In this document: positions 17,294-35,580 of the stretch, one piece after another | Numbering within the stretch: position 1 is the stretch's first letter | Layout: each line of letters starts with the position of its first letter | DNA from: Patescibacteria group bacterium | Lineage (GTDB): Bacteria; Patescibacteriota; Gracilibacteria; UBA4473 | Assembly: GCA_965660445.1 (NCBI GenBank) | Contig: CBFIAK010000001.1 | Span: 352,001 to 416,000, forward strand | Reading direction: 5' to 3' | DNA: 64,000 nucleotides | The notes under the pieces: model-generated | Databases searched by the model: none | The model's input: only the letters and a program-made list of their open reading frames with translations | Told to the model about the DNA's origin: nothing | Position numbers and translations under genes: made by a program

Positions 17294-17294
17294 G

Positions 17295-17311
17295 ATTTTC
17301 TAACTGGCTCC
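17295..17311. repeat. Left att core (17 bp)
   Basis: ATTTTCTAACTGGCTCC, identical to 35529-35545. Confidence 0.92.
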
Positions 17312-17490
17312 AAAGATTGGAGTTGATTGCTCGCTATTTCGCTTTTGAGAAAGGGGCTTATTGCCCGAATCTGAGACTTGAGGAGAGGTTGGCGAATGAG
17401 ACGGATGAGTGGGTGATGTAGAACAAATTTTCAGTTGAATTTTTAGAGCTAATTGGTAAACTAAAAATAACATACTAATACTTTCACACT

Positions 17491-17712
17491 ATGGAGGAAA
17501 AAAACTCACAAGAAGAAAGAACTATTGGCAAAAAAATCAAAACTTTGCGGAATGAAAGAGGTCTTACTGCAGAAGCTTTGGCTCGTAAAGCGGATATTCC
17601 TTACACTACGCTTTCAAAAATCGAAAGTGACGTGATAAAAAGCCCTACTCTGCCGACTGTGATTAAGATTGCAGAAGGTTTGGAGATTACTTTAGATGAA
17701 TTAATTAAATAA
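17491..17712 (+). CDS. XRE-family HTH regulator (C-protein-like)
   Basis: IKTLRNERGLTAEALARKADI..LSKIES..PTL; directly upstream of hsdM. Confidence 0.92.
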   Translation: MEEKNSQEERTIGKKIKTLRNERGLTAEALARKADIPYTTLSKIESDVIKSPTLPTVIKIAEGLEITLDELIK

Positions 17713-17715
17713 ATT

Positions 17716-20103
17716 ATGGCAATAAAAAAATCAGAATTATATAGCTCGCTTTGGAAAAGTTGCGATGAGCTCCGTGGAGGCATGGATGCATCACAATATA
17801 AAGACTACGTTCTTGTACTTTTATTTGTGAAGTATGTCTCGGATAAATACGCAGGAAAAGCTAATGCCCTTATAGAAATCCCAACAGGAGGCGGTTTTAA
17901 TGACATGGTGAATCTAAAAGGGCAAAAAGATATTGGAGATGGAATAAATAAAATTATTACAAAACTAGCGGAAGAAAATGACTTAAAAGGTGTTATTGAT
18001 CAAACAGATTTTAATGACGATACAAAGCTCGGAAAAGGTAAGGAAATGGTGGATCGATTAACCAAACTGATCGCTATTTTTGAAAATGAAGCTTTGAATT
18101 TTAGTAAAAATAAAGCCGAAGGTGATGATATTTTAGGAGATGCTTATGAGTATCTGATGAGACATTTTGCGACAGAATCAGGGAAAAGTAAGGGGCAATT
18201 TTATACTCCTGCAGAAGTTTCTCGGGTAATGGCAAAAGTAATTGAAATTAATAATTCACAAAGACAAGACCAGACGATTTATGATCCAACTTGCGGAAGT
18301 GGGTCACTTCTTTTGAAAGCGGCAGATGAATCAAGTGTAGGGGTGACAATTTATGGACAAGAAAATGACAATGCCACAGCGGCACTTGCCAAGATGAATA
18401 TGATCTTACATGGAAATCCAACAGCAGAAATTTATAAAGATAATACGCTTTCAAAGCCATTTTTTAAGAATAATGACGGGAGCCTGAAAACTTTTGATTA
18501 TGTGGTGGCTAACCCTCCATTTTCGACCAAGTCATGGAGCAATGGTTTTGATCCTGCAAATGATGAATTTAATCGATTCGAAGACGGTATTCCGCCAGCA
18601 AAAAACGGCGATTACGCTTTTTTCTTGCATATCATTCGCTCACTAAAATCCACAGGAAAAGGAGCGGTGATCTTGCCTCATGGTGTGCTTTTCCGAGGCA
18701 ATGCCGAGGGTGGTATTCGCCGAAATATTATCAAAAAAGGCTATATCAAAGGAATCATCGGACTACCCGCAAACTTGTTTTATGGAACGGGTATTCCCGC
18801 CTGCATTATCGTACTGGATAAAGAGCATGCCCAAAGTCGTAAAGGGATTTTTATGATTGATGCGAGCAAAGGATTTGTAAAAGATGGCAACAAGAATCGC
18901 CTACGATACCAAGATATTCACAAGATTGTGGATGTGTTTAACAAACAAAGTGAAGTACCAAAATTTTCTCGAGTGGTTTCACTCGCTGAGATTGAAAAAA
19001 ACGACTACAACCTCAACATTCCTCGCTATATTGATACGCAAGAAGAGGAAGATATTCAGGATATCGAGGCACATTTACAGGGTGGTATCCCAAGCCGAGA
19101 TATTGATGCACTTGCGAAATACTGGCAAGTGTTCCCAAATCTCCGAAGTGAGCTTTTTATCAATGGAAAACGAGCGAATTATCACGAGGCAAAAGTAGTG
19201 CCCGAGCAGGTAAAAACAACGATCGCCGAACATGGCGAATTCCTAAATTATGCCAAAACAGTGCAGACGATTTTTACCAAATGGAGAGAGAAAAACACGC
19301 AGAAACTCAAAAATATCGGGGTGGGAGTGAAACCGAAGGAACTGATTGTTGAAATTTCCGAAGATATTTTGCAAAGCTTCGCCAGCTCCGAGCTAATTGA
19401 TAAATATGATGTGTACCAAAGCCTGATGTTTTATTGGAACGAGGTGATGCAAGATGATCTCTATATGATCGGCATAGATGGCTGGAAAGCGGAAGTGTAT
19501 CAAGTGGTCGATGCCAAAGGAAAAGCAAAAAAAGATGAGTGGGACTGTGATTTGATTCCAAAAAACCTCGTTATCAATCGCTATTTTGCCGAAGATAAAA
19601 CTGCAATCGAAAATCTCAATGTGGAACTGGAAGAAATCGCTCGAAAAAAGGAAGAAATGGAAGAAGAACACAGCGGAGATGAAGGAGCTTTCTCCTCTCT
19701 CGATAAAATCAACAAAGGAACGGTAAAGGCTCAGATGAAAGAAGTGGAAAAAGATGATGAAGAATACGAGGTTTTGACGAGTTATTTACAGTTTCTGGAA
19801 GAAGAATCAGAACTCAAAAGGCAGATTAAAGAAGCGGAAAAGGCTCTTGATAAAAAACTCTTTGGGAAATACAAAACGCTCACCGAAGACGAGATAAAAA
19901 CGCTCGTGGTGAAGGATAAATGGATGACTGCGGTACACAGTGCCATTGAAGCCGAAATCGAGCGAATTTCGCAAAGTCTGTCGCAAAGAATCAAAGATCT
20001 GACCGAGAGATACACTGCCCCTTTGCCACAGCTGGAAGCTGAAACGGCGGATTTGACTAAAAAGGTCGAGGCTCATTTGGAGAAAATGGGGTTTAGAATT
20101 TAA
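17716..20103 (+). CDS. hsdM: Type I R-M methyltransferase subunit
   Basis: LWKSCDELRG, GQFYTP, DPTCGSGS, NPPF, PHGVLFRG, YNLNIPRYID. Confidence 0.97.
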   Translation: MAIKKSELYSSLWKSCDELRGGMDASQYKDYVLVLLFVKYVSDKYAGKANALIEIPTGGGFNDMVNLKGQKDIGDGINKIITKLAEENDLKGVIDQTDFNDDTKLGKGKEMVDRLTKLIAIFENEALNFSKNKAEGDDILGDAYEYLMRHFATESGKSKGQFYTPAEVSRVMAKVIEINNSQRQDQTIYDPTCGSGSLLLKAADESSVGVTIYGQENDNATAALAKMNMILHGNPTAEIYKDNTLSKPFFKNNDGSLKTFDYVVANPPFSTKSWSNGFDPANDEFNRFEDGIPPAKNGDYAFFLHIIRSLKSTGKGAVILPHGVLFRGNAEGGIRRNIIKKGYIKGIIGLPANLFYGTGIPACIIVLDKEHAQSRKGIFMIDASKGFVKDGNKNRLRYQDIHKIVDVFNKQSEVPKFSRVVSLAEIEKNDYNLNIPRYIDTQEEEDIQDIEAHLQGGIPSRDIDALAKYWQVFPNLRSELFINGKRANYHEAKVVPEQVKTTIAEHGEFLNYAKTVQTIFTKWREKNTQKLKNIGVGVKPKELIVEISEDILQSFASSELIDKYDVYQSLMFYWNEVMQDDLYMIGIDGWKAEVYQVVDAKGKAKKDEWDCDLIPKNLVINRYFAEDKTAIENLNVELEEIARKKEEMEEEHSGDEGAFSSLDKINKGTVKAQMKEVEKDDEEYEVLTSYLQFLEEESELKRQIKEAEKALDKKLFGKYKTLTEDEIKTLVVKDKWMTAVHSAIEAEIERISQSLSQRIKDLTERYTAPLPQLEAETADLTKKVEAHLEKMGFRI

Positions 20104-20121
20104 TAATTAAATTTTTTTATC

Positions 20122-20379
20122 ATGACTAAATCAAACGCAAAAAAGGTTACTAGCAAAAAGGCTGCAACTGCTGCGAGCAAAACCTTAAAAGACGGCAGAA
20201 CTTCTAAAACTACCAAAAGTGCTGCTGGTAGTGCCCTTGCTCAACGCAAAGCACCGAAAAAAACAACAAGTAATAAAGCTGCAACTGCTGCCAGTAAGAC
20301 GCTGAGAACTAAATCCACAGCGAAAAAATCAAAGACTGCTGCTGGTAGTGCTTTAGCTCAAAAACCTAAGAAAAGATAA
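20122..20379 (+). CDS. Small basic K/A/T/S-rich protein with two 39-aa repeats
   Basis: KAATAASKTL...AAGSALAQ twice; stop overlaps next start (TAATG). Confidence 0.8.
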   Translation: MTKSNAKKVTSKKAATAASKTLKDGRTSKTTKSAAGSALAQRKAPKKTTSNKAATAASKTLRTKSTAKKSKTAAGSALAQKPKKR

Positions 20380-21143
20380 TGACCATGGATTTTAAACAAT
20401 CAACTTTCGGCGAAATTATTGAGAGCGAACGAGAAATGGTACTGAAAGGTGCAGAACTTTATGGTGATTTTTTCGTTAATGCTTTTGAATTCAATAATTT
20501 ATTAAATAATTTCGTAAAATCAATTGATGATGTTGAAAAATACATTTTTATTGCATTTTTATCTCAAGTAAAAAAACATCATACCCTCGCATTATTTTCC
20601 GCGGTGCGACAACATCATGTACAAACAGGTATGAATTTGAGACAGGTGCTGGAAGCAGGTTCATGGGCTGCCTACGCAATGGGAAATAAGGAACAAGAAA
20701 AATTTTGTGAACAAGATTTAAATGGGGTTTTACAAGTTCCAGATAAACTTATGAAAGCAAAGAATAAATGGCTTACTGATAAATATAAAAACGGATCTGA
20801 TGCAATTAGAAGATTGAAAGATTTAATCAATAGCTCTATGGCACACTCAAATATTGTGTACACATTTCAAAACTTTCAAGCAAGACCAACAGATAATCCT
20901 GGCTTTGATATTCCGTTTTTTGATTATTCTGATGATTTTAAGACAAAAACAGATTTATGGTTTATAGGAAATATTGCCTTAGGTTTGCTGGATTTGTTTT
21001 ATGGTGTGAATAAAGATTTCAAAGTTTTTCAATTCATAGATGATTATTTGCCAAGATTTAAAAAGCTCGTTGCTCAGAATGAAGCGCTGAAAGCGGAAAT
21101 GATGAAGCATGAAAGATTTAAAAGTGTAACTCAACAGAAATAA
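20379..21143 (+). CDS. Hypothetical helical protein, possibly DUF5677/HEPN-like
   Basis: LRQVLE and SSMAHS motifs; TAATG coupling at both ends. Confidence 0.7.
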   Translation: MTMDFKQSTFGEIIESEREMVLKGAELYGDFFVNAFEFNNLLNNFVKSIDDVEKYIFIAFLSQVKKHHTLALFSAVRQHHVQTGMNLRQVLEAGSWAAYAMGNKEQEKFCEQDLNGVLQVPDKLMKAKNKWLTDKYKNGSDAIRRLKDLINSSMAHSNIVYTFQNFQARPTDNPGFDIPFFDYSDDFKTKTDLWFIGNIALGLLDLFYGVNKDFKVFQFIDDYLPRFKKLVAQNEALKAEMMKHERFKSVTQQK

Positions 21144-22309
21144 TGACCACAACCACTATAAAAGCAGGCTACAAGATGACCGAGATCGGGGTGATACCCG
21201 AGGATTGGGAGGTGTGGAATTTGGGTGTTATTGGGGAAATTAAGATGTGCAGACGCGTTTTTAATGATCAAACGAAAGCAATTGACGCCATCCCGTTTTA
21301 TAAAATTGGTACTTTTGGAAAAGAAGCTGATGCATATATTTCAAAGAATTTGTATGAAAGTTACAGGAAGAAATTTTCATTTCCTAGAAAAGGAGATATT
21401 TTGATCTCTGCTGCTGGTACAATAGGAAGAACAGTTGTCTACGATGGAAAGCCAGCTTATTTTCAAGATTCAAATATTGTATGGATTGATAATAACGAAA
21501 ATCTGGTTTTTAACACTTATCTTTATTATGTTTATCAGGTTGTAAAATATGATACAGAAGGTGGAACAATTCAGAGACTGTACAATTCCATAATTAAAAA
21601 TGCAGAATTTGCTAAGCCTTTAAAGCTTGAACAACAAGCCATCGCCACTGTCCTCTCCGACACCGACGAGCTGATCCGCTCGCTCTCTGCTCTCATCGCC
21701 AAGAAACGGCAGATAAAAGAAGGAGCAATGCAAGAACTGCTGACAGGGAAAAAGCGACTAGCAGGGTTTAGTGGTGAGTGGGAGGTGAAGAAGTTGGGAG
21801 AAATGTGCGGAAATATTACTACTGGAAAACTTGATGCGAATGCAATGGTCGAAAATGGAGAATATCGTTTTTATACCTGTGCAAAAGAACATTATCGGAT
21901 TAACAATTATGCTTTTGATACAGAAGCTTTGCTCGTTTCAGGGAATGGAGCGAATGTCGGATATGTTCATTACTACAAAGGAAAATTCAATGCTTATCAA
22001 AGAACCTATGTTTTATCTAATTTTTTAGAAGAAGTTCACTTTATAAAAGTGTTTATGGATAGAAATTTGCAAGAAAGAATTAGAGTTGAAGTTAATGCTG
22101 GAAATACACCATACATCACAATGGGAACTTTAACGGAAATGGAAATAAATATTCCTCCAACCAAAGAAGAACAACAAGCTATCGCTGAGATCCTTTCAGG
22201 CATGGACAGTGAGATGACCGCTCTCGAACAGAAGCGAGAGAAATATCGCCTCGTGAAGCAAGGTATGATGCAACAGCTTTTGACTGGCAAGATCAGAATT
22301 CCGAATTAG
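21143..22309 (+). CDS. hsdS: Type I R-M specificity subunit
   Basis: GVIPEDW; two TRDs each followed by EQQAIA..L....MQ.LLTGK. Confidence 0.96.
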   Translation: MTTTTIKAGYKMTEIGVIPEDWEVWNLGVIGEIKMCRRVFNDQTKAIDAIPFYKIGTFGKEADAYISKNLYESYRKKFSFPRKGDILISAAGTIGRTVVYDGKPAYFQDSNIVWIDNNENLVFNTYLYYVYQVVKYDTEGGTIQRLYNSIIKNAEFAKPLKLEQQAIATVLSDTDELIRSLSALIAKKRQIKEGAMQELLTGKKRLAGFSGEWEVKKLGEMCGNITTGKLDANAMVENGEYRFYTCAKEHYRINNYAFDTEALLVSGNGANVGYVHYYKGKFNAYQRTYVLSNFLEEVHFIKVFMDRNLQERIRVEVNAGNTPYITMGTLTEMEINIPPTKEEQQAIAEILSGMDSEMTALEQKREKYRLVKQGMMQQLLTGKIRIPN

Positions 22310-22375
22310 TGTGAACCGTCGACAATTTGTCGATAACTGAATTTATCAGTTTCTAATGCGAAAAATTAGCTTCAT

Positions 22376-22496
22376 TGATAAGTAAGGAGGGTTAGCGATG
22401 ATAAGTAAGGAATGCAGGAAATGATAAGTAAGGTATTTCTGTTAGTTAAAAATACTTGCATAAAAAAGCCTGTTTAGCTAAACTTATGATAAGTAA
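22376..22496 (+). promoter_or_regulatory. Direct-repeat array plus sigma70-like promoter upstream of fic
   Basis: TGATAAGTAAGG at 22376, 22399, 22422; TGATAAGTAA at 22487; TTGCAT(22456)-17 bp-TAAACT(22479). Confidence 0.7.
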
Positions 22497-22516
22497 TAAA
22501 AATTTATATTGAAAGT

Positions 22517-23680
22517 ATGAGTAACTCAAATTTGCAAATAACGATTCCCGATCCAACATGGGGTAGTAAGCTCGCCAATATTGTTTTGGATTTGGAAAAA
22601 TTGCGCTCAAAAAAGCTTCATGGAGAAGTTCCTCCGCATATCTTTTTTCAACTCAAAGACATCTTTCAAATTTTGGAAACTTTGGGTTCGGCGAGAATTG
22701 AGGGAAACAATACCACTCTTTCGGAATATGTGGAGAAAATCATAGAAAACAAGGCAAAGAAAGACGAAAGTCAAAAAGAAGTTTCCAATCTTGATGAAGC
22801 CATTAAATTTATTGAAGAAAATACAGACGAAGAAACAGTCCTTTCTCGGGCTTTTATTTCAGAGCTACATAAGATAATCACTCGAGACCTCACCCCTCCG
22901 CCAAGCGGAGAAGGATCAAACAATCCTGGGAATCTCCGCACGCACAATGTGCAAATCAAAAAGGCAAAACATACGCCCCCTGATTTTGCTGTTTTGCCCG
23001 ATCATTTTGAAGAGTTTTTAAAATTTATAAACAACACTTTTCCTGAGCAATATCAGCTCCTTATGGTGGCTATTGCTCATCATCGTTTTGCTTACATTCA
23101 CCCGTTTGATAATGGAAATGGAAGGATGGGAAGGCTTTTGAATTATGTGCTTCTTATCAAGCTTGGGTTTCGGGTGAAAAACGGAAGAATTATCAACCCA
23201 TCATCAGTTTTTTATACTGATCGAGATAAATATTACGATATGCTCGGAAAAGCAGATTCTTTGGAAAATGCTGATGTTTTAGAGTGGGCGGAGTATTTTC
23301 TTTTAGGACTTAAAAATGAAATTGAAAAAATTGATAGTCTACTGAGTCGCGAATATGTGCAGGAGAAAATTCTTTTACCAGCATTGGATTTTGCCCTAGA
23401 GCGTGAAAATATTACCGAACAAGAATTTAAGATTTTAAAATATCTTTTGCAAAAAGACGATATGGTTATCAAGTCTGAAGAACTCGATGAGTTTGGTATT
23501 GAGAATTCTGTGCAAAAATCCCGTATTATGGCTCGTCTTCGTGAAAAGAAAATAATTCACCCCCTCAAAAAAGGAGGGAGAATTTATACCATTAGTTTTG
23601 TGAATAATTACCTTTTGCGTGGAGTTATCAAAAGCCTTACGGATCAAGGTTTTGTTTCTGATTTTTTAAATACGAATTAA
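22517..23680 (+). CDS. Fic family protein
   Basis: HPFDNGNGRMGR Fic motif; SARIEGN inhibitory-helix motif; C-terminal wHTH-like region. Confidence 0.95.
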   Translation: MSNSNLQITIPDPTWGSKLANIVLDLEKLRSKKLHGEVPPHIFFQLKDIFQILETLGSARIEGNNTTLSEYVEKIIENKAKKDESQKEVSNLDEAIKFIEENTDEETVLSRAFISELHKIITRDLTPPPSGEGSNNPGNLRTHNVQIKKAKHTPPDFAVLPDHFEEFLKFINNTFPEQYQLLMVAIAHHRFAYIHPFDNGNGRMGRLLNYVLLIKLGFRVKNGRIINPSSVFYTDRDKYYDMLGKADSLENADVLEWAEYFLLGLKNEIEKIDSLLSREYVQEKILLPALDFALERENITEQEFKILKYLLQKDDMVIKSEELDEFGIENSVQKSRIMARLREKKIIHPLKKGGRIYTISFVNNYLLRGVIKSLTDQGFVSDFLNTN

Positions 23681-23683
23681 ATT

Positions 23684-26600
23684 ATGAATTCTCAATCAAT
23701 CAAAGTCGGCCAAATAGAAAGACTCACACAAGATCGCGTGGTGCAGTTTTTTCAGGACTCTCTCGGCTACGACTACCTCGGAGACTGGCAAGACCGCGAT
23801 GGTAATTCGTGTATTGAGGAGGAATATTTGCGGAAATTTTTGGTGTCTCAAGGATATAGCGACTCGCTCATTACCAAAGCTTTGTATGAAATAAATAAAG
23901 TCGCAGGCGACCAAGTAAAAAGCCTGTATGACATCAATAAAGAAGTGTACAGCCTGCTTCGCTACGGGGTAAAAGTAAAAGAAGGTGTGGGCGAAAACAC
24001 GCAAGATGTGTGGTTGATTGACTGGAAAAATCCAAGCAAAAATCACTTTGCTATTGCAGAGGAAGTGACCGTGCAAGGACAAAATACCAAACGCCCCGAT
24101 ATTGTGCTGTATGTGAATGGGATCGCCCTCGGCGTGATCGAACTCAAACGCAGTAAAGTGTCTGTCGCCGAAGGAATCCGTCAAAACCTCGACAATCAAA
24201 AGAAACTTTTTATTCAGGGCTTTTTTGCTTGCATGCAATATGTAATGGCGGGAAATGACACGGAGGGACTTCGCTACGGAACCATTGAAACCTCGGAGAA
24301 GTATTATCTTTCTTGGAAAGAATCAGGCACAGAAAGCAATCTCCTCGACCGTCATATCGGACAAATGTGCCAAAAGGAGCGGTTTCTGGAGCTGATTCAT
24401 GACTTTATCGTCTATGATAAGGGGGTAAAAAAAGTTTGCCGACACAATCAATATTTTGGAATAAAAGCGGCTCAAGATTCACTCCACCGAAGAGAAGGCG
24501 GAATTATTTGGCACACACAAGGAAGCGGAAAAAGCCTCACCATGGTTTGGCTTGCCAAGTGGATAAAGGAAAACATCAATGATTCACGAATTCTTATTAT
24601 TACCGATCGAGAGGAGCTGGATGATCAAATCAAAAAAGTATTCAAAGGTGTTGGAGAAACAGATATTCATCGAACAAGTAGCGGAAATGATCTCATCAAG
24701 CAGCTCAACTTAAAAGAAAAATCACTTCTCTGCTCGCTGGTGCACAAATTTGGCGGAAAAGATGAAGATGGCACAGACGACTACATTGCCGAACTCAAGA
24801 AAAATCTGCCAAAAGACTTCAAAGCCAAGGGCGATATTTATGTGTTTGTCGATGAATGTCATCGAACCCAATCGGGAAAATTGCACGAAGCGATGAAGGA
24901 GATTTTGCCGAATGCTGTGTTTATCGGTTTCACAGGTACGCCACTACTCAAAAAAGATAAGCAAAAGAGTATCGAGATCTTTGGGAAATACATTCACACT
25001 TACAAATTTGATGAAGCGGTGCGAGATGAAGTGGTGCTGGATTTGCGTTATGAAGCTCGGGACATTGACCAAAAAATAACTTCTCAAGATAAAATCGACG
25101 CTTGGTTTGACGCCAAGACTCGCGGACTGACGGATTTTGCCAAAGTAGAACTCAAGAAAAAATGGGGAACCATGCAAAAGGTGCTAAGTTCTCTTTCTCG
25201 ACTCAATAAAATCACTTCCGATATTTTGCTCGATTTTGAGACCAAACCACGGCTTTATGATGGAAGCGGAAACGCCATGCTGGTCGCTGGCAGTATTTAC
25301 GAAGCGTGTAAGTATTACGAGATTTTCCAAAATCACGGCTTCAAAAAATGTGCGATTATTTCTTCTTACAACCCGACCGTTGCCTCAATCAAAGGTGAAA
25401 GCACGGGAGAAGACGAAGAATCAGACAATTTGAAAAAATACGAGGTATACAACCGCATGATCAAGCAATGGTTTAATTATCCCGAAAACAAAGCTCTGAC
25501 CGATAAAGATACCGAGAAATTTGAGGATGATATTAAAAAGAAATTCATCGAAGAACCTGGCCAAATGAAACTGCTGATCGTAGTGGACAAACTGCTTACG
25601 GGCTTTGATGCGCCGTCGGCTTCGTACTTGTATATCGATAAAAATATGCAAGACCACGGGCTATTTCAGGCAATTTGCCGAGTAAATCGACTTGATGGTG
25701 AAAGCAAAGAATACGGCTACATCGTGGATTACAAAGATCTTTTCAAAAAACTGGAAAATGCCGTTGGTGATTATACTTCGGAAGCCTTTGATAGTTTTGA
25801 TGCGGAAGATGTGGAAGGACTTTTGAAAGACCGTTTGGAAAAAGGAAAAGAGCGACTGGATGAGGCCTTGGAAGTGGTGCGCGCACTGTGCGAAGGTGTG
25901 GCTGCTCCAAAGCAGTCGCCTGAGTACATTGCCTATTTCTGCGGTGATGATCTCAAAGCAAATGAGCAAAAACGAGTTCATCTTTATAAAAAAACAGCTT
26001 CACTAATCCGAGCCTATGCCAACTTGGCAAATGAAATGCAAGAAGCGGGCTACACCGAAGCGGAGATTGCACAAATTAAAAAAGAAGTGGAACACTACAA
26101 AGACGTGCGTGAAGAGGTGCAGCTCTCAAGCGGTGATTACATTGATCTCAAGGCCTACGAGCCAGCCATGAGGCATTTGATTGATTCGTATATCAGCGCA
26201 GAAGAAAGCGAAAAAATCTCGGCATTTGACGATATGAGCTTGCTTCAGTTGATTGTGGAGCGTGGCATTGATGAAGCAATTAAGGCACTTCCCCGAAGCA
26301 TTGGCAAACACAAGGAATCCATTGCCGAAACAATCGAAAACAATATTCGCAAACTCATCACCGACGAGCAATCAGTCAATCCGAAGTTTTACGAGCGTAT
26401 GTCTATCCTGCTCGATGAACTCATCGAAGCTCGCCGAAAATCATCCATCAATTATCAGGAATATTTGAAACGAGTGGTGGAATTGACCAAGTTGGTGCGA
26501 GGAGATGAAAAAGAATCAAGTTATCCAAGCACTCTTGATGGCAAAGCCCAAAAAGCCATCTACGATAACCTTGGGCAAGATGAAGATTTGGCAATTGCGA

Positions 26601-26752: not shown

Positions 26753-27476
26753 AGTCATTCATAGCGAAATGTTGGTCGGCAACCTGCAGGTAAGCGTCTT
26801 GAAAAAGGCGGTGAAAAACCTGCATTTAAATGTGCTTCCTCCACATGGTAAGGTGCGTGTGTCTGTACCGCCAAGCATGGATGATGATGCGATCCGAGTA
26901 TTTATTGCCAGCAAAATACCGTGGATCAATAAGCAAATCGAAAAATTTAAAAACCAACCCCGAGAAAGTAAGCGAGAATTTATGACGGGAGAAAGCCATT
27001 ATTTTCAAGGGAAACGCTATCTTTTGCATGTTGTAGAGTCAGAAGGTCGGGCGAAGGTGGAAATCAGAAATAAGAAGTATTTGGATTTGCATATTTCCAA
27101 AGGTTCCAGCTCAGCGGAGCGAGAAAGAATATTGACCGTGTGGTATCGCAACGAACTCAAAAAACAAGTGCCTACATTGCTCGAGAAATGGGAGAAAATC
27201 ATGGGCGTAAAAGCCAATGAATGGCGAGTAAAGTATATGAAAACCAAATGGGGAACCTGCAATAGTCAGGCAAAACGAATTTGGCTCAACCTAGAACTCG
27301 CAAAAAAGCCCCTACATTGCCTTGAATACATCATTGTGCATGAACTAGCCCACTTGCTCGAAAGAAGCCACAACGAGCGATTTGTGGCCTACATGGACAA
27401 GTTTATGCCCGAGTGGAGAGTTCGAAAGGAGGAACTCAACAAATTCATCCTGACTTATGAGGAGTGGGGGGAGTGA
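26742..27476 (+). CDS. M48/YgjP (DUF45) metal-dependent hydrolase
   Basis: MKTKWGTC, YIIVHELAHL..H; typical hsdR neighbour. Confidence 0.92.
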   Translation: MNTKVIHSEMLVGNLQVSVLKKAVKNLHLNVLPPHGKVRVSVPPSMDDDAIRVFIASKIPWINKQIEKFKNQPRESKREFMTGESHYFQGKRYLLHVVESEGRAKVEIRNKKYLDLHISKGSSSAERERILTVWYRNELKKQVPTLLEKWEKIMGVKANEWRVKYMKTKWGTCNSQAKRIWLNLELAKKPLHCLEYIIVHELAHLLERSHNERFVAYMDKFMPEWRVRKEELNKFILTYEEWGE

Positions 27477-27492
27477 AATTAATTCAAAAAAT

Positions 27493-29475
27493 ATGAGAAT
27501 ACATAAAATCAACGTCATCAATTACAGGTTGTTAAAAGATTTTTCTATCGATTTGGCAGAAGATTTCTCTTTGGTAATTGGGAAAAATAACACGGGGAAA
27601 ACATCATTTCTCCAAATTTTACAAAAATTTCTATCTGCAAACTCAAATAATTTTAGTTTTGAGGATTTTCATGTTGATATTCAAAAGGATATTTCCCAAA
27701 AAATAGAAGCTACAGATGAATTAGCAGAAGAAAACTATGAGGAGCCCAAAATAAAATTACTGATTGCTATTGAAAGAGATGACAATGATAGTCTTGAGAA
27801 TATCTCTGATTTGATTATTGACCTAGATCCAAACAACAAAACCTTGCTTTTATCTTTTGAGTACGCTCTTAATTTTGAAAACTTTATAAAAATTAGAAGT
27901 GATTTTAAGGATCATCACTTGGAAAGAGTTGCTGATTTTTTGAGTAAACATCATAAAGCTTATTTCAAAATTAAAAAAAGTGTTATTGATAAAAATGATG
28001 AAGATAATTTCATAGAAATTGAGGACTCTAAGCTCAAGAGAATTATAAATATTCAGACAATCTCTGCTAAACGAGATGTTTTAAATGAAGATGGTGAGGA
28101 TTCCAAATCTAACAATGCCTTATCAAAATTATCGTATAAATACTATGAGCCATCCAAAAATTCTAATGCTCCTCATGTAATTGATCTACAAAAAAAATTA
28201 ATTGAAACAGATAATAACTTAACTCAGTCCTATGAGGGTATTTTTAAGAAAGTAACAGAAGACGTAAAAAAATTCAGTTATAGCGGATCAAAAATTTTCG
28301 TTAAATCAAATTTCCAAGAAATAAGCCTTTTAAAAGAAAACACTTCTGTCGTTTATGACGAAAAGGGATGCCACTTACCTGAGGATCATAACGGTTTGGG
28401 ATATATGAATCTGTTTGCAATGATTTTCAAATTGCACATTATTTTTGATGAGTTCAAAAAGGTTCATTCTGACTCTAAAATGGCAGATATAAACTTACTT
28501 TTCATTGAAGAACCTGAAGCGCATACTCATCCACAAATGCAGTATGTCTTTATTAAGAATATTAAAAACTTCTTAAGTGAAAATAAAGAAAGTTTGAATT
28601 TGCAAACAGTAATCACAACTCATTCTGCACATATTGGATCTCAGAGTGATTTCAGTGATATAAAATATTTTCTTTGTAGAGATGATCGGGTTGTTGTAAA
28701 AAATCTATCCATCTTGGAGGATAAATACGGAAAAGACGATGAAGGTAAGGCAAGTTTTAAATTCCTAAAACAATATCTAACCTTGCATAGGGCGGAACTC
28801 TTCTTCTCTGACAAAATTATTTTTATTGAGGGTGATACGGAAAGGATTTTGTTGCCAGCTATGATGAAAAAGCTTGATGACGAAAATAAAGAGACGGAAG
28901 GTTTTAGCCCATTATTATCTCAAAAAATATCGATTATTGAGGTTGGTGCGCACTCCAAATTATTTGATAAATTCCTTGAGTTTTTGGAAATTAAAACCTT
29001 AATTATTACAGATTTAGATTCTGTAAAAGATAATGGTGCAGGTAGAAAAGAATCGTGCAAAGTCTCAGAAGGAACAGATACTTGTAATTCTTCCATTAAG
29101 CATTATTTGCAAGGAAAAAACTGGGATGATTTAAAAAGTATTACGAATGAGCAAAGAGTTGTGACTAGAGAAAATACAGAAATATACATAGCTTATCAGT
29201 CAGAGGAAGAAAGTTATCAGGCAAGATCTTTTGAAGATGCTTTTTTGAGCCTTAATCTTGAGTTTATCAAATCAAAAAAGGATGATTTTAATAGCTTGAA
29301 AAATATAAATATCATAGATTCAACTACACCTGATTATTTCGAGATTGGAGAAAAATGCATTGATAAAAAGACGGAATTTTCAACGGATATTTTATTTTAT
29401 TCTGATGAAGGATTTACGAATTGGAAAACACCTGCATATATTAATAATGGATTACTATGGCTGATGAAAAAATAA
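27493..29475 (+). CDS. OLD-family ATP-dependent nuclease (GajA-like)
   Basis: GKNNTGKT, IEEPEAHTHP, TTHS, TOPRIM FIEGDTE and ITDLDS; start moved to MRIHK. Confidence 0.92.
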   Translation: MRIHKINVINYRLLKDFSIDLAEDFSLVIGKNNTGKTSFLQILQKFLSANSNNFSFEDFHVDIQKDISQKIEATDELAEENYEEPKIKLLIAIERDDNDSLENISDLIIDLDPNNKTLLLSFEYALNFENFIKIRSDFKDHHLERVADFLSKHHKAYFKIKKSVIDKNDEDNFIEIEDSKLKRIINIQTISAKRDVLNEDGEDSKSNNALSKLSYKYYEPSKNSNAPHVIDLQKKLIETDNNLTQSYEGIFKKVTEDVKKFSYSGSKIFVKSNFQEISLLKENTSVVYDEKGCHLPEDHNGLGYMNLFAMIFKLHIIFDEFKKVHSDSKMADINLLFIEEPEAHTHPQMQYVFIKNIKNFLSENKESLNLQTVITTHSAHIGSQSDFSDIKYFLCRDDRVVVKNLSILEDKYGKDDEGKASFKFLKQYLTLHRAELFFSDKIIFIEGDTERILLPAMMKKLDDENKETEGFSPLLSQKISIIEVGAHSKLFDKFLEFLEIKTLIITDLDSVKDNGAGRKESCKVSEGTDTCNSSIKHYLQGKNWDDLKSITNEQRVVTRENTEIYIAYQSEEESYQARSFEDAFLSLNLEFIKSKKDDFNSLKNINIIDSTTPDYFEIGEKCIDKKTEFSTDILFYSDEGFTNWKTPAYINNGLLWLMKK

Positions 29476-31052
29476 AACCTATCGAGCAAATAGAACAATG
29501 CATTAAGGCAAAAGATAATTTTGTTTTAAATGGAGGCGCAGGAAGTGGAAAAACAAAAACGCTTATTGATGTTTTGGATTTATTATATTCAATTGATTCT
29601 GCTTGTAAGATTGCGTGTATCACTTTTACAAATGTAGCTGCAGATGAAATTTCGAATAGGGTTGCTAATAAGAATATTCAACTCAGAGCTTCAACGATCC
29701 ATGACTTTCTTTGGGATATCGTTAAAAATTATCAAAAAAATCTAAAAATAGCTCTTATTGAGCTGATTGATTCTGGAAAAATTTCATATAAAGGGGAAGA
29801 AACCTTAAATAATGATTGGTTCAAAGGAAAAACCATTGATTATCGTGAATGGAAAAAAATTGAAGATGGAATAATTTCACATAATGAGGTTTTGCAATTG
29901 GCAAATAAGCTTTTTCAAGAATTTCCGCTTTTGAGAAAGATCTTAAAAGACAAATACGATGTAGTTTTGATTGATGAATATCAGGATACAGAAAAACAAA
30001 TTATTGAAATTTTCCTCAATTTTTTACAGGAAGATAAAGGAGATTTTATCGTTGGTTTTTTTGGGGATTCAATGCAAGCAATTTATAACAAGGGTATCGG
30101 TGATTTATCGGAGTATGTAAATGCTGGCATAGTCAAAGAGGTGCAGAAAGAAGATAATTGGAGATGTTCAAAAAGCGTGATTGATTTAATTAATAAAATT
30201 CGAAATGACGGACTTGAGCAAAAATCTGCAGGAGATAATGTAAATGGGAAAATAACCTTTTTATACAGCAATACAAATGAGTTCGATATTCAGGAAATTA
30301 AAAAGCATGACGCTTTTAGTGATTTTGATTTTGAAAACGTTGCTGAAAACAAGGAGCTTTACTTGACTCATAAACTAATTGCCACTCAATTTGGTTTTAA
30401 GAATCTTTTAGAAAAATATGAATATACGGAGAATTTAATGGGTGATAATCCTGATCGGTTATCAAAACATTTGTTTAGAATACAAGAGATTATTCATCTT
30501 TATCAAAATAGACACTTTAATGAATTCATCAAAAAAACCGATTACAAGGTTATTAAAAATAGCGATCTCCAATTACTGAAAGACAGTATTGAACAACTTG
30601 TTGATTGTTCCAAGAAGACAATTGAAGAATCTATAAATTTAGCTGACGAACTTAAGCTTGTAATAAAAGATGATAGATTGAACAATTTTATCGTCGAACA
30701 TGAAGAACAATACAATGCAATTAAAGATCTGTCATATGGCGAGATAGTGAATGTTTTTAATTATAAAAATGAGCACTCTCCATATTCAACACAACACGGC
30801 GTAAAAGGAGCGGAATTCGATAATGTTTTTGTCATTCTAGATAATGGAAAGTGGAATCAATACAATTTTACTCATTTATTCAAATTAACTTCAGGAAAAG
30901 AAGATATTATAGAAAGAACAAGAAAAATGTTTTATGTTTCATGCTCTAGGGCAAAAAAGAACCTTGTGGTATTTTTTCCAAATCCTGATGTCCATGTTTT
31001 GGATCAAGCTCGAATATGGTTTGGCACCAAAAATGTTGTTGAAATAGAATAA
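29457..31052 (+). CDS. UvrD-like helicase (GajB-like)
   Basis: GAGSGKT, ITFTN, DEYQD, GDSMQAIY, HGVKGAEFD, YVSCSRAK; overlaps the OLD gene. Confidence 0.92.
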   Translation: MADEKIKPIEQIEQCIKAKDNFVLNGGAGSGKTKTLIDVLDLLYSIDSACKIACITFTNVAADEISNRVANKNIQLRASTIHDFLWDIVKNYQKNLKIALIELIDSGKISYKGEETLNNDWFKGKTIDYREWKKIEDGIISHNEVLQLANKLFQEFPLLRKILKDKYDVVLIDEYQDTEKQIIEIFLNFLQEDKGDFIVGFFGDSMQAIYNKGIGDLSEYVNAGIVKEVQKEDNWRCSKSVIDLINKIRNDGLEQKSAGDNVNGKITFLYSNTNEFDIQEIKKHDAFSDFDFENVAENKELYLTHKLIATQFGFKNLLEKYEYTENLMGDNPDRLSKHLFRIQEIIHLYQNRHFNEFIKKTDYKVIKNSDLQLLKDSIEQLVDCSKKTIEESINLADELKLVIKDDRLNNFIVEHEEQYNAIKDLSYGEIVNVFNYKNEHSPYSTQHGVKGAEFDNVFVILDNGKWNQYNFTHLFKLTSGKEDIIERTRKMFYVSCSRAKKNLVVFFPNPDVHVLDQARIWFGTKNVVEIE

Positions 31053-31243
31053 TTGTTTGATTTTGGCATAGGTTGTGATACCATTTTGGTACGGAATTTC
31101 TAATTTTTAGTAGTTGCGCAGAGTCTTAAAGACTAACTCGTTTCCGCTTAGCGGAGGCAAGGAGAGTTGGTATTTTTGCGTTTAAATTTACGCAACTTCT
31201 CTCACTTCTCACACGGAGCCCCCCCCATTATTAAGCCAAAATT

Positions 31244-31595
31244 ATGCAAGGAAAAAAGACTACATCTCGGGATAAGAAACGCTTTCTTGATGCCTTCAAG
31301 CGAAGACATGGAATTGTCACACTTGCTTGCAACGACGCAGGTATCTCAAATTTTACTTTTTATAAGTGGATGAGAGATGATCCTGAATTCGCAGAACAAG
31401 CCGAAGAAGTCCGCGACATTGAGATCGGGATCATTGCCGAAGACCGTCTTGCCGAAGCCGATCATCGTGCATAAAGACATGGCGATGGTTCGGTTTTACC
31501 TGCAATCACGAAATCGCAAATATATGCAAAAAATTCAAACAGAAATCCATGATCCAACCAAAGAGCTGGCGGATCTGCTCTGTTTGGATGAGTAG
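31244..31595 (+). pseudogene. Frameshifted terminase-small-subunit-like HTH gene
   Basis: KKRFLDAF..GIVTLAC..AGIS..TFYKWM..DPEF..AEDRL continues in another frame as IIVHKDMAMVRFYLQSR; one extra base near 31460. Confidence 0.65.
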
Positions 31596-31609
31596 AAATT
31601 AACCAACCA

Positions 31610-32335
31610 ATGAAATATAAAGATGTAATCACAAACGAGGCACACGTTCGCCCACAGGCGCGAATGAATCCCTTTGACCTAGTTGTTAGCCAATACTGGG
31701 GCAAGCCAAGCACACAGGCCGTATTTCGGGCTTTATTTCAAAAGGTGAAGCAACTTCCCTTTGATACTTTGTACATTACTTGGAATAATGCCGACTTTCG
31801 CAGATCTTTCTTGCAATCTGGTGTTGATTTGGAGTATGTCTTTTTTGAGCTTTGCAATCTTTCGGAAGAAGCTTGTTTGGATGAGGAAGAATCTCGCTTT
31901 GTAATTCACGATACTGGATTTTTGTGGAAAAATAATCCGAATGGTTCGCTTACCTTTTTCATTTCTGATCGCGAAAAAATGGAGGACTTTTTGGAAAGCA
32001 AGCAGGGAGTTAGATTCAAGGTTTATCCACACAAAACACAGAGATACAAAGATATCACTTTTGACCTAACTACAGGAGAGATTTTTAAATCAGGCAAGCA
32101 GATAGATAAAATTGAACTAGGTACTGACTACGAAAAATTAATCAAACTTCTGCTTGAAAATCGTGGGTATAATTTCTCATATTTGGAATTAGCCCGAACT
32201 TTGGGGATAGAGCAACTTTATACGAGAAATAAATTTGATACAGAAAAATCAATCAGCACCAAATTTTCTCGGCTCAATGCCAAGTGTCGTGAGAAAGTTT
32301 TTCAGTGCAATAACGGCTACTTTGTGGCTATTTAA
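31610..32335 (+). CDS. Hypothetical protein with C-terminal winged-helix (OmpR-like) domain
   Basis: KLIKLLLENRGYNFSYLELA...ISTKFSRL...NNGY. Confidence 0.65.
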   Translation: MKYKDVITNEAHVRPQARMNPFDLVVSQYWGKPSTQAVFRALFQKVKQLPFDTLYITWNNADFRRSFLQSGVDLEYVFFELCNLSEEACLDEEESRFVIHDTGFLWKNNPNGSLTFFISDREKMEDFLESKQGVRFKVYPHKTQRYKDITFDLTTGEIFKSGKQIDKIELGTDYEKLIKLLLENRGYNFSYLELARTLGIEQLYTRNKFDTEKSISTKFSRLNAKCREKVFQCNNGYFVAI

Positions 32336-32426
32336 AGCACTTGCGAAAGGATGACGAAACGATGTGGGTGCCTTTTTGTAGTGCTCAAATGACAATGTGT
32401 GCGAGTTCAACAAAGTAACCGCACAT

Positions 32427-32612
32427 ATGAATCGAGATGTAAAAAGACAAGACGGGCAAGATATGACCTCCTCGCAGAAAGAGAAACTGCGAGAGATTTT
32501 TGCATGTCGCTACGAGCGGGAGCTTGATGACCAAGAACTTTTTGAAATCCACTTCAATTTGAAGCGGTTTTTCAGTCTGCTTGATAAGTTCGAGTCAGGC
32601 AATGATTTATAG
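32427..32612 (+). CDS. Small hypothetical protein
   Basis: Co-oriented ORF in replication module; start uncertain. Confidence 0.55.
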   Translation: MNRDVKRQDGQDMTSSQKEKLREIFACRYERELDDQELFEIHFNLKRFFSLLDKFESGNDL

Positions 32613-32631
32613 CCTTTAATTTTTTTACACT

Positions 32632-32877
32632 ATGACAAACATTGAAAACCTCTACCAAACTTCCGATTGGTACCTCTGTGTATTTTTAATCGCACGAGAG
32701 CATGAACTCATCGACGTCGATCGACGAGATGGTAAGCGATGTAAATTCATTTTTGAAGATGATTTTGACCTCCAAAGTGATGTACGAGGCTTTTGGGGAA
32801 ATGAGGATATTGGTGTGCAGGATTTTGTGGCTGCGGTAAAAAAAGCAAAATCAATTCTCTATTCCGATAGCTATTAG
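32632..32877 (+). CDS. DUF5659-like small protein
   Basis: YQTSDWYLCVFL..L..VDR....KFIFE pattern. Confidence 0.65.
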   Translation: MTNIENLYQTSDWYLCVFLIAREHELIDVDRRDGKRCKFIFEDDFDLQSDVRGFWGNEDIGVQDFVAAVKKAKSILYSDSY

Positions 32878-32928
32878 ACGTCTATAAGCCGTCTATTAGT
32901 CGTCGCAAACTTTTTAAGATAAAGATAT

Positions 32929-33690
32929 ATGGATCACGAAAATTTCACCAGAATCCCCAACGATGTCCTCGAAGAGGCAATTGGCAACAAAGCGATGTGT
33001 GCAAGAGCACGCGTTTTTATGGCTATTTTGCGGAAAACTTACGGCTGGAATAAAAAGGAAGACTGGATCGCTTTATCCCAATTTGAGAAGATGACGGGAA
33101 TCAGTAAAGCGAATATTTGCCGAACTCTCAGGCAGCTGACCGCCCTAAAAATCATTATCAAATCTGACAACAAATACCGCATAAATCCCATTGGTAAGAC
33201 GTGGGAGTCATTATCAAATATGACAAAGAAAAAGCCCGTTATCAAATCTGATAAACCCCTTTGTCAAAACGGACAATCTCCTTTGTCGGATATGACACCC
33301 ACAAAAGACACTCTTACAAAAAACACTTTTTTACAAAAGAAAGATAAAACCTTGCAAAATTCTTTTGCAAGGGAGCTCTCAAATAAAATGACTAAAAAAC
33401 ATTTTGATTTGTTTTATAGGCACTTCCCAAAGAAAGGGAAAAAGAAAACTTCAGAAAGAAGATTTATGAAACTCGACCGTTCAAGATTCGGGCTAATCAT
33501 GACCGCGATGTGTTCCAAAATAAACACTCCAACTTGGAATATAAACAGAAAACAATACACGCCATACGCCAGCGATTGGATTGCGGGCGATATGGAAGAA
33601 GATATTGCTGCGCTGGATTTGGAAAATCCTAGATACAAAACATTGTTTGAATGTTATTCCGATGAAAAATATCACGGAATCTTTGAATAA
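32929..33690 (+). CDS. Phage replication initiator (lambda O-like N-terminal domain)
   Basis: FTRIPNDVLE..RVFMAILRKTYGWNKKEDWIALSQFEKMTG. Confidence 0.9.
   Translation: MDHENFTRIPNDVLEEAIGNKAMCARARVFMAILRKTYGWNKKEDWIALSQFEKMTGISKANICRTLRQLTALKIIIKSDNKYRINPIGKTWESLSNMTKKKPVIKSDKPLCQNGQSPLSDMTPTKDTLTKNTFLQKKDKTLQNSFARELSNKMTKKHFDLFYRHFPKKGKKKTSERRFMKLDRSRFGLIMTAMCSKINTPTWNINRKQYTPYASDWIAGDMEEDIAALDLENPRYKTLFECYSDEKYHGIFE
33155..33298. repeat. Five palindromic iterons inside the replication gene (probable origin)
   Basis: TTRTC-N6-GAYAA-like 16-mers at 33155, 33211, 33239, 33261, 33283, then A-rich tract. Confidence 0.75.
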
Positions 33691-33747
33691 CTTGCTATTC
33701 CCACCCCTTCGAGCAATGTATACCTAACAACATTTATAAGAATACCC

Positions 33748-35580
33748 ATGCAGAAAACCATACTTTATTGCCGTAAATCTACGGAGTCGGATGAACGCCA
33801 AGTGCAGTCGCTCGACGATCAAATTTCCGAGATGAAAGAGTTTGTAACCCGCTTTAACACGGGCTTTGCTCGCACACCCGATGATCAACTCAAGCTCATC
33901 AGTACCAAGACGGAAAGCTTTTCCGCCAAGATGTGTGGCAGGCGCAAGGTGTTCAACGAGGTGATGACAGAGGTAGAAAACGGGCAATGTGACTGCATTC
34001 TAGTGTGGTCAATCGATCGTTTGTCTCGGAATGTGGGAGATGTGGAGCGAGTTATTGCCTTATTGGAATGCGGACTCCTCAAACAAATCCGTACACCGAG
34101 CCAAGAATTCAAAAATGAGCCGTTTCACAAATATATGCTCGTGCAGGCGGTGGCGAATGCCAAACTAGAGAACGATCAAAAAGGTGTAAATGTGGTGCGT
34201 GGGCTGAAATCCAAAATCCGAAGCGGAGACTGGATCGGCTGGGCGCGAATCGGCTACGAAAACTTTGGAAACAAAAAGGGGCAAAAATGGGTGGATAAAG
34301 ACGAGACTCGTTGGGAAGTTGTGAAAAACTGCTGGGATATGTTTGCGACGGGGAGTTATTCCGTTCCGCAAATCAAAGAATATGCCGAGAAAATGGGGCT
34401 TCGTGCCAGACCGACTCGCAGACAACCTGAAGGCTCAATGGTCGGGATCAACACTTATTACGGCATGTTTCGCAATCCTTTCTATATGGGCAAAATGCGG
34501 ATTGGTAATTCACACAGCGGAAAAGGCGTGAAGATTTTTGCCGAAGCCAAAGAGCTGCTTACCCGAGGCGAGATCGAGGGCGAACTCTGCGAAGACTGCG
34601 TGGTAGTCGAAGCCAATCATCCGCCGATGATCAGTGAAGAGATGTTTTATAGGGTGCAAGAAGTACTCAAACAGCGCGGCCTTGCCCATCACACGGCGAG
34701 GAAACGCATTCACAACTATCTTTTTGCGGGAGCGATCCATTGCAAAAAATGCGGATGTGCGACCGTAACCGAGGAAAAGCGGAAATACAAATGCTCACAT
34801 TGCCATAAATGGTTTACACGATCTAAAAATCACCCTCTACCTCTTGATTGTCCGAAATGCAAAGAATCCATCACCGAAGAAACAAGAGAAAGTGTTGTAA
34901 TCCACCGATATGTCCGCTGTACGGGGCATAACAAAAACAAAAAGCCCTGCTCGCAGGGAGAATGCCAAAACGGAAGTTACAAAAGAACCGCTGTAGAAGC
35001 CGAGATTTGCCAACAAATCGAGGATTATCTCGATAGCCTATCGATTTCCCCCGAGATTCTCGAATATGCTCAAGAAACTCTCCGTGACGAGCATTTCCAA
35101 AAGAAGGTACTGGAAAACAAATCATTACAGAATCTGCAAAAAGATCACCAGCTCATCAAGAATAAGCTCGATAACTTACTCGAGATGAGGCTTGCGGGTG
35201 AGATAGAAAGCGACCTGTTTGCGCAGAAAAAGGCGGATCTCACTACAAAGCAAGATGAGATCATGAAACAAATCCAAAAGCTCAACGATAAAAACACCGA
35301 CTGGGTCGAACAAGCCGATAACTGCCTGAATCTGGCTAACAGAGCCAAAAGAGCATGGAAGAGCGGATCAAAACAGCTAAAACGCGAAATCTTGAAAAGT
35401 TTGAGTTCGAACGCGTATTTAGTGGATGGAAAAATCGAACTGGAATTGCGGAAACCTTTTGACACACTGCTTATTCCGCGACTTGACGAAGACAAGAAAA
35501 AAGCACAGAAATCTCTTTCTGCGCCTGAATTTTCTAACTGGCTCCCGGGGTCGGGTTCGAACCGACGGCCAAGTGGTTAA
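33748..35580 (+). CDS. Large serine recombinase (integrase)
   Basis: YCRKS catalytic motif, DRLSRN, recombinase domain (RNPFYMG, HPPMISEEMF), Zn-ribbon CxxC motifs, coiled coil. Confidence 0.95.
   Translation: MQKTILYCRKSTESDERQVQSLDDQISEMKEFVTRFNTGFARTPDDQLKLISTKTESFSAKMCGRRKVFNEVMTEVENGQCDCILVWSIDRLSRNVGDVERVIALLECGLLKQIRTPSQEFKNEPFHKYMLVQAVANAKLENDQKGVNVVRGLKSKIRSGDWIGWARIGYENFGNKKGQKWVDKDETRWEVVKNCWDMFATGSYSVPQIKEYAEKMGLRARPTRRQPEGSMVGINTYYGMFRNPFYMGKMRIGNSHSGKGVKIFAEAKELLTRGEIEGELCEDCVVVEANHPPMISEEMFYRVQEVLKQRGLAHHTARKRIHNYLFAGAIHCKKCGCATVTEEKRKYKCSHCHKWFTRSKNHPLPLDCPKCKESITEETRESVVIHRYVRCTGHNKNKKPCSQGECQNGSYKRTAVEAEICQQIEDYLDSLSISPEILEYAQETLRDEHFQKKVLENKSLQNLQKDHQLIKNKLDNLLEMRLAGEIESDLFAQKKADLTTKQDEIMKQIQKLNDKNTDWVEQADNCLNLANRAKRAWKSGSKQLKREILKSLSSNAYLVDGKIELELRKPFDTLLIPRLDEDKKKAQKSLSAPEFSNWLPGSGSNRRPSG
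35497..35524 (-). terminator. Element-supplied tRNA-Asn terminator antisense to the integrase 3' end
   Basis: Minus strand GCGCAGAAA-GAGA-TTTCTGTGC-TTTTTT, 14 nt after the tRNA CCA. Confidence 0.7.
35529..35545. repeat. Right att core (17 bp)
   Basis: ATTTTCTAACTGGCTCC; includes last 7 nt of tRNA-Asn. Confidence 0.92.

Follow-up and report, generated by a model that had tools for sequence, protein, structure and literature searches.

Serine integrases are the main tools for the insertion of large DNA cargo, and the control of their direction is an active structural question. In the characterised large serine recombinases (LSRs), for example SPbeta SprA/YokA, A118, phiC31 and Bxb1, the attachment site attP lies outside the open reading frame (ORF) of the integrase, and protein genes or intergenic sites serve as targets. 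Mx8, SSV1 and BPs, where attP interrupts a gene, are tyrosine recombinase systems; the SSV1 integrase gene extends across attP and is partitioned upon integration into a tRNA gene, and the target of Mx8 is a tRNA gene, too. According to excerpts of the respective papers, attP of phage Mx8 is part of the integrase coding sequence, and integration creates a new 3' end by which activity is changed, not destroyed (PMC6070905), and BPs has attP inside its repressor gene, from which integration removes a degradation tag (PMC3694055). Excerpts of the Islander paper (2014) allow for an integrase gene that contains attP, name SSV1-type integrases as the att-split case, and describe serine integrases as not known to use tRNA genes (PMC4383910). 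The word tRNA is absent from the main text of Durrant et al. 2022. In a preprint on tycheposons 27 of 937 elements carry an LSR; as tycheposons thus include LSR elements, LSRs may to some extent have been connected with tRNA sites before. Within the literature library searched, no paper was found on attP inside a serine integrase gene, and the supplementary tables of Durrant et al. 2022 and Islander/TIGER may contain such att sites overlapping an LSR ORF, or LSRs located at tRNAs. Here we analysed a 64,000-nucleotide window of a Patescibacteria genome (contig CBFIAK010000001.1, positions 352,001 to 416,000), in which an 18.2-kb stretch is, judged from its sequence, an integrative element of a candidate phyla radiation (CPR) bacterium inserted by its LSR at the 3' end of tRNA-Asn, with the att site inside the recombinase gene itself.

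The element is bounded by an exact 17-nt direct repeat (Table 1) that has only two copies in the window (up to 2 mismatches allowed; 0.00 expected from shuffles) and only two in the whole 991,330-base, five-contig genome (up to 1 mismatch). The repeat spans the last 7 bases of tRNA-Asn, including the encoded CCA, and 10 bases beyond the tRNA. The layout is that of a tRNA-targeting island, in which one end has the intact tRNA with the integrase gene adjoining it, and the opposite end a displaced repeat of the tRNA 3' end. The encoded LSR has a catalytic domain (PF00239, Resolvase, residues 5-162, E 3.5e-13) and a PF07508 (Recombinase) match; a PDB match covers residues 16-357 of the SPbeta integrase, and residues 282-387 resemble structures of the A118 integrase C-terminal domain. 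Cys clusters are visible, and PF13408 was not matched.

The LSR ORF crosses the right repeat copy and ends in ..SAPEFSNWL followed by PGSGSNRRPSG and a stop codon antisense inside tRNA-Asn. In the left copy, the same register reads FSNWL and then QRLELIARYFAFEKGAYCPNLRLEERLANETDEWVM up to a stop codon at 17419-17421; this tail begins with QRLELIARYF and finishes with ..TDEWVM. An earlier note on this DNA had claimed both the run of the ORF through the right core and the 36 open codons past the left one, and both are present. The location of the att core inside the integrase ORF, and the altered C-terminus upon integration, were seen in the window sequence and in relatives. By chance, 36 open codons would be met with a probability of ~0.08 (our base-composition estimate), weak evidence if taken alone; the tail is judged to be more than a chance frame because of comparative data. 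The further claim of the note, that circularisation would produce an integrase with a different and longer C-terminus, is supported by selection on the tail, its missing start codon, its recurrence in a second LSR subfamily, and contiguous proteins.

Counterparts of the window tail were found in G300 (G300:C6:12177-12299, 86% DNA identity) and twice on G023:C39 (77% and 75%); together, these four copies from related elements form the type-1 set. In 4 of 4 the frame is open for 36-38 codons and ends in ..TDEWVM followed by the stop codon directly or after AG or G. The alternative tail, which the note had proposed to compare among homologues, is conserved. Pairwise Nei-Gojobori (NG86) dN/dS ratios were 0.04-0.11, values not independent of one another, and variable columns were distributed over codon positions 1, 2 and 3 as 10/3/23 in the LSR frame. 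Summed pN/pS was 0.18 in this frame and 0.85, 3.3, 1.0, 0.31, and 14 in the other five; the sole other frame free of stop codons in all four tails is the one with the value of 14. Between the window and G300, pS and pN were 0.45 and 0.05 for the tail and 0.47 and 0.05 for the LSR body (597 codons); thus, the tail diverges in step with the recombinase gene despite a distance of 17-18 kb. In the same comparison, the 60 nt past the tail stop codon are 25% identical. An in-frame TGA lies 6 codons upstream of the window tail with no ATG, GTG, or TTG in between, and copy b of G023 has a TAA 4 codons upstream. The tail matched no Pfam family and no solved structure; an assignment as a CCCH zinc finger (weak PDB profile match, E 0.26) was rejected, as the tails do not conserve the Cys residues.

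In three genomes (G352, G368 and G401), an equivalent tail follows the attL of a second LSR subfamily with 53% identity to the window LSR. In G352, the core is present twice at a distance of 14.8 kb, and after the attL copy the LSR frame reads RILEAVSTCFARGEAGYFPYHVVVEHMNEVMAKAG to the stop codon, a type-2 tail of 35 codons beginning with RILEAVSTCF. The tail of G352 recurs at the attL sites of G368 and G401 with quite different host flanks, and in codons 1-28 of this tail, 5 synonymous and 0 nonsynonymous changes separate G352 from G368. None of the type-2 tails has an ATG, GTG, or TTG close to its beginning. Type-1 and type-2 tails align over their full length; invariant positions are L, E, F, and A close to the beginning, another E further on, and V and M towards the end.

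LSR homologues with 51-98% identity were found at nine genome loci, at seven metagenome loci, and in ten protein clusters. Among the genome loci, the LSR end overlaps tRNA-Asn at six and runs at two into a 3' half of tRNA-Asn that breaks off at the anticodon loop, and one (L018) has a contiguous non-tRNA tail; the six close metagenome loci with complete ends comprise four at tRNA-Asn, one at tRNA-Gln, and one ending in RSRG without a tRNA. From 69 family proteins, 11 without the C-terminal body were left out, and the remaining 58 complete C-termini were classed by regular expressions of our own: antisense-tRNA residues form the end of 43, a motif tail (hydrophobic-hydrophobic-x-x-hydrophobic) that of 10, and something else that of 5. 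Both end types occur inside single 90% clusters, as in cluster 5 with PRLGSNQ (P0155-P0157) versus RIVNNVRDIF... (P0009, P0158). The LSRs on viral contigs were only 30-34% identical, and neither the phage nor the plasmid collection contained a match at E 1e-20.

Several relatives showed individual features. At L029 (11792-11866), an LSR 89% identical to that of the window is inserted at tRNA-Gln(ttg) rather than tRNA-Asn; its ORF runs antisense through the whole tRNA-Gln, giving a 39-residue tail after Trp-Leu. P0125, a 695-residue member of the window-LSR cluster, has an antisense-tRNA tail broken by ~66 extra residues before tRNA-like residues resume, which suggests a duplicated or interrupted 3' part of the tRNA. 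Just past the LSR stop codon of L020 and L021, tRNA-Asn breaks off at the anticodon loop and gives way to unrelated DNA, as though the loop had received a second element with a different integrase. The L018 contig, in a bin labelled SAR324, carries the family LSR P0014 with a contiguous tail ending in ..KLAA among a relaxase, a coupling-protein-like ATPase, two tyrosine integrases, and a PIN gene; it is probably a conjugative or mobilisable element, or mis-binned.

Public data contain proteins whose LSR sequence continues through Trp-Leu into the tail. They were retrieved by searching for the tail alone among longer proteins and with a five-tail profile against 1.84 billion representatives (14 matches at E ≤0.001). 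P0184 and P0181 carry the contiguous tail within the LSR family of the window, and P0179, P0180, P0182, P0183, P0189, and P0190 carry it on bodies that are 21-34% identical to the window LSR or to each other. All these LSR lineages share the Trp-Leu crossover, so tail side and enzyme side are exchangeable. The P0179 locus (G040:C1:959082-960692) contains the LSR with its tail, then a transporter, a DUF302 gene, and a second tail copy (963211-963320), past which follow a type I restriction-modification set, an AAA_21/RloB pair, and tRNA-Asn (976052-976126); the cargo with the second tail copy amounts to 15 kb, and no recombinase adjoins the tRNA-Asn. The tail DNA of G040 is 89% identical to that of the window over 144 nt, including 25 nt past the stop codon. 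G105:C8 is alike: its LSR runs into the tail, and a 5' fragment of tRNA-Asn lies 15.4 kb further on. We read the G040 and G105 loci as tandem arrays, in which a newcomer inserted at the tRNA end would have joined the recombinase of the resident to its own tail. Given a contiguous form in a chromosomal array, contiguous database proteins are no proof of free circles or attP forms. In tRNA-Asn arrays, two tail copies lie 2.6 kb apart in G040:C1:959082-976126 (L151, L152) and 1.7 kb apart in G023:C39 (L130, L133); the left junction of one tail copy is odd in the same way in G040 and G023, an in-frame stop codon lying 4 codons upstream.

The borders of the relatives narrow down the site of strand exchange. 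In G300, attL and attR have only TGGCTCC in common, G368 and G401 share 8-9 bases ending in TGGCTCC, and the tRNA-Gln insertion of one relative with the same P arm diverges directly after TGGCTC. By these alignments, the crossover is mapped to TGGCTC(C), the antisense of the tRNA end ..GGAGCCA-3' and the codons for Trp-Leu, which explains the invariance of Trp-Leu in the family. The repeat described in the earlier note as a 17-nt att core is indeed exact at both ends, but the region of exchange appears to be shorter; the 10 extra identical bases left of the core in the window are unnecessary for recombination, because G300 and the tRNA-Gln case share less. In the window and in G352, these bases left of TGGCTCC may be the stump of the P arm of an older element; translation of the flank left of attL gave only a faint likeness to an older LSR 3' end with a 1-base loss. 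The last bases of tRNA-Asn are predicted to derive from the element side of the crossover. In reconstructed attP sites, dyad symmetry over 24 positions peaked at the last two bases of TGGCTC in three of five sites (G352 14/24, L018 11/24, G300 10/24), whereas at this offset the window scored 9/24, second to 10/24 elsewhere, and L110 7/24 without a peak, which gives modest support only. Of the 36 tail codons, only ~8 would fall within an attP of 50 bp. A near-match of the core in G105:C5 was considered as an empty attB and taken as chance, as it lies in coding sequence without a tRNA.

Taken together, these data make it probable that the isoform swap is real and that the displaced module is functional. 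In the arrangement we propose, the recombinase up to Trp-Leu would occupy one side of attP and the conserved module of ~36 residues the other. In the excised circle, both parts would be contiguous and the enzyme would carry the module; after integration, the module would be left 18 kb away and untranslatable, and the enzyme would end with whatever the antisense strand of the tRNA encodes. Translation of the module would thus be confined to joined P and P' arms, that is, to the excised circle or, as a by-product, to arrays. The purifying selection on the tail points to a role in the excised state, in integration or in episomal life. If the module is made only there, any excision would be carried out by the module-less enzyme, and integration would amount to a one-way isoform switch like that from IntP to IntX in Mx8. 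Most likely, the module would be a small unit, folded or binding, by which the attP x attB reaction is supported or gated. Taken by themselves, the specific roles are graded lower: that it gates direction or supports integration is a tentative assignment, and that it mainly sets the protein level is unlikely. One tail serves LSRs with 21% identity, so its partner is probably conserved, namely the catalytic core, DNA, or a host or element factor. An improbable, if attractive, extension is that the tail is a portable, frame-locked state sensor of 30-40 residues, exchangeable between LSR lineages, by which the module-bearing enzyme integrates and the module-less one excises, and which partly or wholly replaces a directionality factor.

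Other explanations of the tail can be weighed against the same data. It might be conserved as DNA, either as a P' half-site or as control DNA for the helix-turn-helix (HTH) gene that starts 70 nt past the tail stop codon, with translation being accidental; the first ~8 tail codons do lie within ~24 bp of the presumed crossover and overlap the expected P' half-site. However, the changes are concentrated at third positions of the LSR frame, Arg and Leu residues are retained across switches between synonymous codon families, and conservation spans all 36 codons, well past a 50-bp att site, and ends at the stop codon, which leaves this explanation hardly credible. Nearly as improbable is a small independent gene, or a fusion to a non-LSR protein, translated in the integrated state. 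Called ORFs of 62-82 residues that end in the tail at attL sites (P0177, P0178, P0185, P0186, and P0187) would fit, as would the upstream frame of G300 with its in-frame starts, but the sequence upstream of Trp-Leu is different in every host, in-frame stop codons precede the tail in the window and G023 copy b, and type-2 tails lack a nearby start. Several of the short ORFs, moreover, resemble leftover LSR 3' ends (..KEPF..), fitting decayed older elements.

A generic tag for stability, localisation, or partner binding, by which the swap would control the protein level and not the chemistry, is an unlikely alternative that draws on the same tail being present behind LSRs of 21-29% identity and on BPs as a precedent, where, by the excerpts consulted, integration removes a C-terminal degradation tag with attP in the gene (PMC3694055). 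Against it, the tail has no match to a family or solved structure, and the extreme C-termini vary (..WVM, ..WVMAG, ..WIMVKK, and ..WVMAGAKQGA, each before the stop codon) while ~30 internal residues are conserved; because residues past ..DEWVM vary in this way, a C-end degron is disfavoured. The tail of P0014 ends in ..LAA, which we take to resemble an ssrA-type tag. Finally, the copy in the window might be a fixed fossil that has lost excision, so that no swap takes place in this genome. The source run yielded no junction contigs, arrays that include decayed members are frequent at this tRNA, and no gene for a recombination directionality factor (RDF) was identified, but the LSR ORF is intact, both repeats are perfect, and the tail ORF is intact and in frame; we regard a fossil as rather improbable. 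With respect to the junctions, a single contig covers 17000-35594 without skip or back joints at the repeats, and since contigs drop rare variants, missing junction contigs carry no weight on rare circles or empty sites. A search for the empty site in 40 relatives, all from other genera, matched only the tRNA itself; the sequences downstream of their tRNA-Asn genes differ.

Returning to the module-bearing integrase, several observations weigh against it. The near-identity of the P0179 tail (36 of 38 residues identical to that of the window) behind a body with 21% identity speaks against docking on a lineage-specific enzyme surface, and at least one contiguous form, that of G040, is chromosomal and part of a tandem array. 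Upstream of the G300 tail, 99 codons of the frame are open, with in-frame starts and across tRNA-like debris, so separate translation may occur there. Some relatives have tails that are very short or unrelated (RSRG, PKP, and PEHFYYSNHS), and the four type-1 tails come from related elements, so that their pairwise values depend on one another. The source run, examined as contigs only, showed neither an attP nor an empty attB junction.

The genes of the element share one direction (Table 1). The cargo contains a type I restriction-modification system and a Gabija pair with adjacent GajA (ATPase and TOPRIM, E 6.5e-227) and GajB (UvrD-like helicase, E 4.5e-179) assigned by PADLOC, with which the Pfam domains agree. 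Related loci have the backbone of 31.0-35.6 kb in common and differ in cargo; several of the small backbone ORFs are without family match. As in the earlier note, which had recognised no RDF gene, none of the genes of the element could be assigned as RDF; RDFs are not known to have a common sequence signature. The host genome has a size of ~1 Mb, and the related loci are labelled as metagenome-assembled genomes of Peribacteria, Peregrinibacteria, Gracilibacteria, and Patescibacteria.

Table 1. Features of the integrative element and its borders in the window
Feature	Position	Strand	Remarks
Terminator-like hairpin with T-run	17275-17287	-	in host DNA just left of attL; would follow tRNA-Asn in the empty site
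attL core, left copy of the 17-nt repeat	17295-17311	.	likely exchange region TGGCTCC at 17305-17311
Tail exon, 36 codons and stop codon, LSR frame	17311-17421	+	without own start; in-frame TGA at 17293-17295
Xre-type HTH gene (HTH_3)	17491-17712	+	first gene of the element; 77% DNA identity in the G352 element
Cargo 1, whole block	17716-27476	+	type I restriction-modification and others
hsdM	17716-20103	+	type I restriction-modification
Two ORFs without family	20122-20379, 20379-21143	+	
hsdS	21143-22309	+	type I restriction-modification
Fic/SoFic-like gene	22517-23680	+	
hsdR	23684-26752	+	type I restriction-modification
YgjP-like metallopeptidase	26742-27476	+	
Cargo 2, Gabija pair	27457-31052	+	GajA 27457-29475, GajB 29457-31052
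Backbone common to related elements	31244-33690	+	
Small HTH ORF	31244-31474	+	backbone
Backbone ORFs	31377-31595, 31610-32335, 32397-32612	+	
DUF5659 gene	32632-32877	+	backbone
Phage_rep_O-like (RepO-like) gene	32929-33690	+	backbone
LSR, integrated-state form, 610 residues	33748-35580	+	last 11 codons are antisense tRNA-Asn
Terminator-like hairpin, 11 pairs and T-run	35501-35526	- (tRNA strand)	inside LSR linker codons; also in L013
attR core, right copy of the 17-nt repeat	35529-35545	.	TGGCTCC at 35539-35545
tRNA-Asn(gtt), intact	35539/35542-35613	-	CCA encoded at 35539-35541; ARAGORN, Rfam

The other strand of the P arm is predicted to encode a replacement terminator for tRNA-Asn, supplied by the element. 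In G352, a hairpin at the equivalent place was found on the + strand only, and the claim is kept to the window and L013. Just outside each end of the element, a 39-nt direct repeat with 77% identity was observed (17226-17264 and 35666-35704); read on the minus strand, each copy looks like the 5' half of tRNA-Asn with a short hairpin after it, and the repeat gave no Rfam match and no fold better than shuffles. The right copy is touched by a promoter-like site upstream of tRNA-Asn (35639-35666, minus strand; TAGATA, 16 nt, TATAAT; 10 of 12 matches). Left of attL, the window contains a host methyltransferase gene (UPF0020 / N6_N4_Mtase, 14763-16013), homologues of which in several relatives (L013, L014, L019, and L030) are located on the 5' side of tRNA-Asn and co-oriented with it; this difference in position indicates that the neighbourhood has been rearranged.

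If the proposed swap is true, the DNA rearrangement itself rewrites the C-terminus of the enzyme, which would offer a testable handle on the control of direction or state without an added factor. The family represents a group of serine integrases with tRNA 3' ends as targets, a habit usually credited to tyrosine integrases, and shows how defence islands with type I restriction-modification, Gabija, and SoFic move and stack in tandem at one tRNA in tiny CPR genomes. For annotation, integrated-state LSR genes of this type are mis-terminated inside tRNA genes, and the true ends appear as small orphan ORFs at a distance of many kilobases.

In its domains, the recombinase resembles SPbeta SprA/YokA, Listeria A118, phiC31, and Bxb1, with which it has the resolvase domain and the recombinase domain and, probably, a Cys-rich zinc region and a short att core in common. 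The analogies to SSV1 and BPs drawn in the earlier note are apt, but the closest precedent is the IntP/IntX pair of phage Mx8, with attP inside the integrase coding sequence, a new 3' end, and an altered but living prophage enzyme. Mx8 Int, however, is a tyrosine recombinase with a long attP, whereas the enzyme described here is an LSR, and the displaced end is a conserved module common to unrelated LSR lineages. The SSV1 integrase is an archaeal tyrosine recombinase that loses a large part of its gene; in the window, the recognised domains stay together, and only the C-terminal tail is exchanged. BPs likewise has attP in a coding sequence, with viral and prophage forms that differ at the C-terminus and are used as a switch, but there the split gene is the repressor and the lost part a degradation tag. 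Here, the HTH gene is whole and the recombinase is split, an arrangement different from integration-dependent immunity of the BPs type, in which attP lies inside the repressor. With its serine chemistry, the locus works like the known systems with attP inside the integrase gene without being a member of their tyrosine class, and an LSR gene split by attP is a new addition to the "attP inside int" theme of Mx8 and SSV1.

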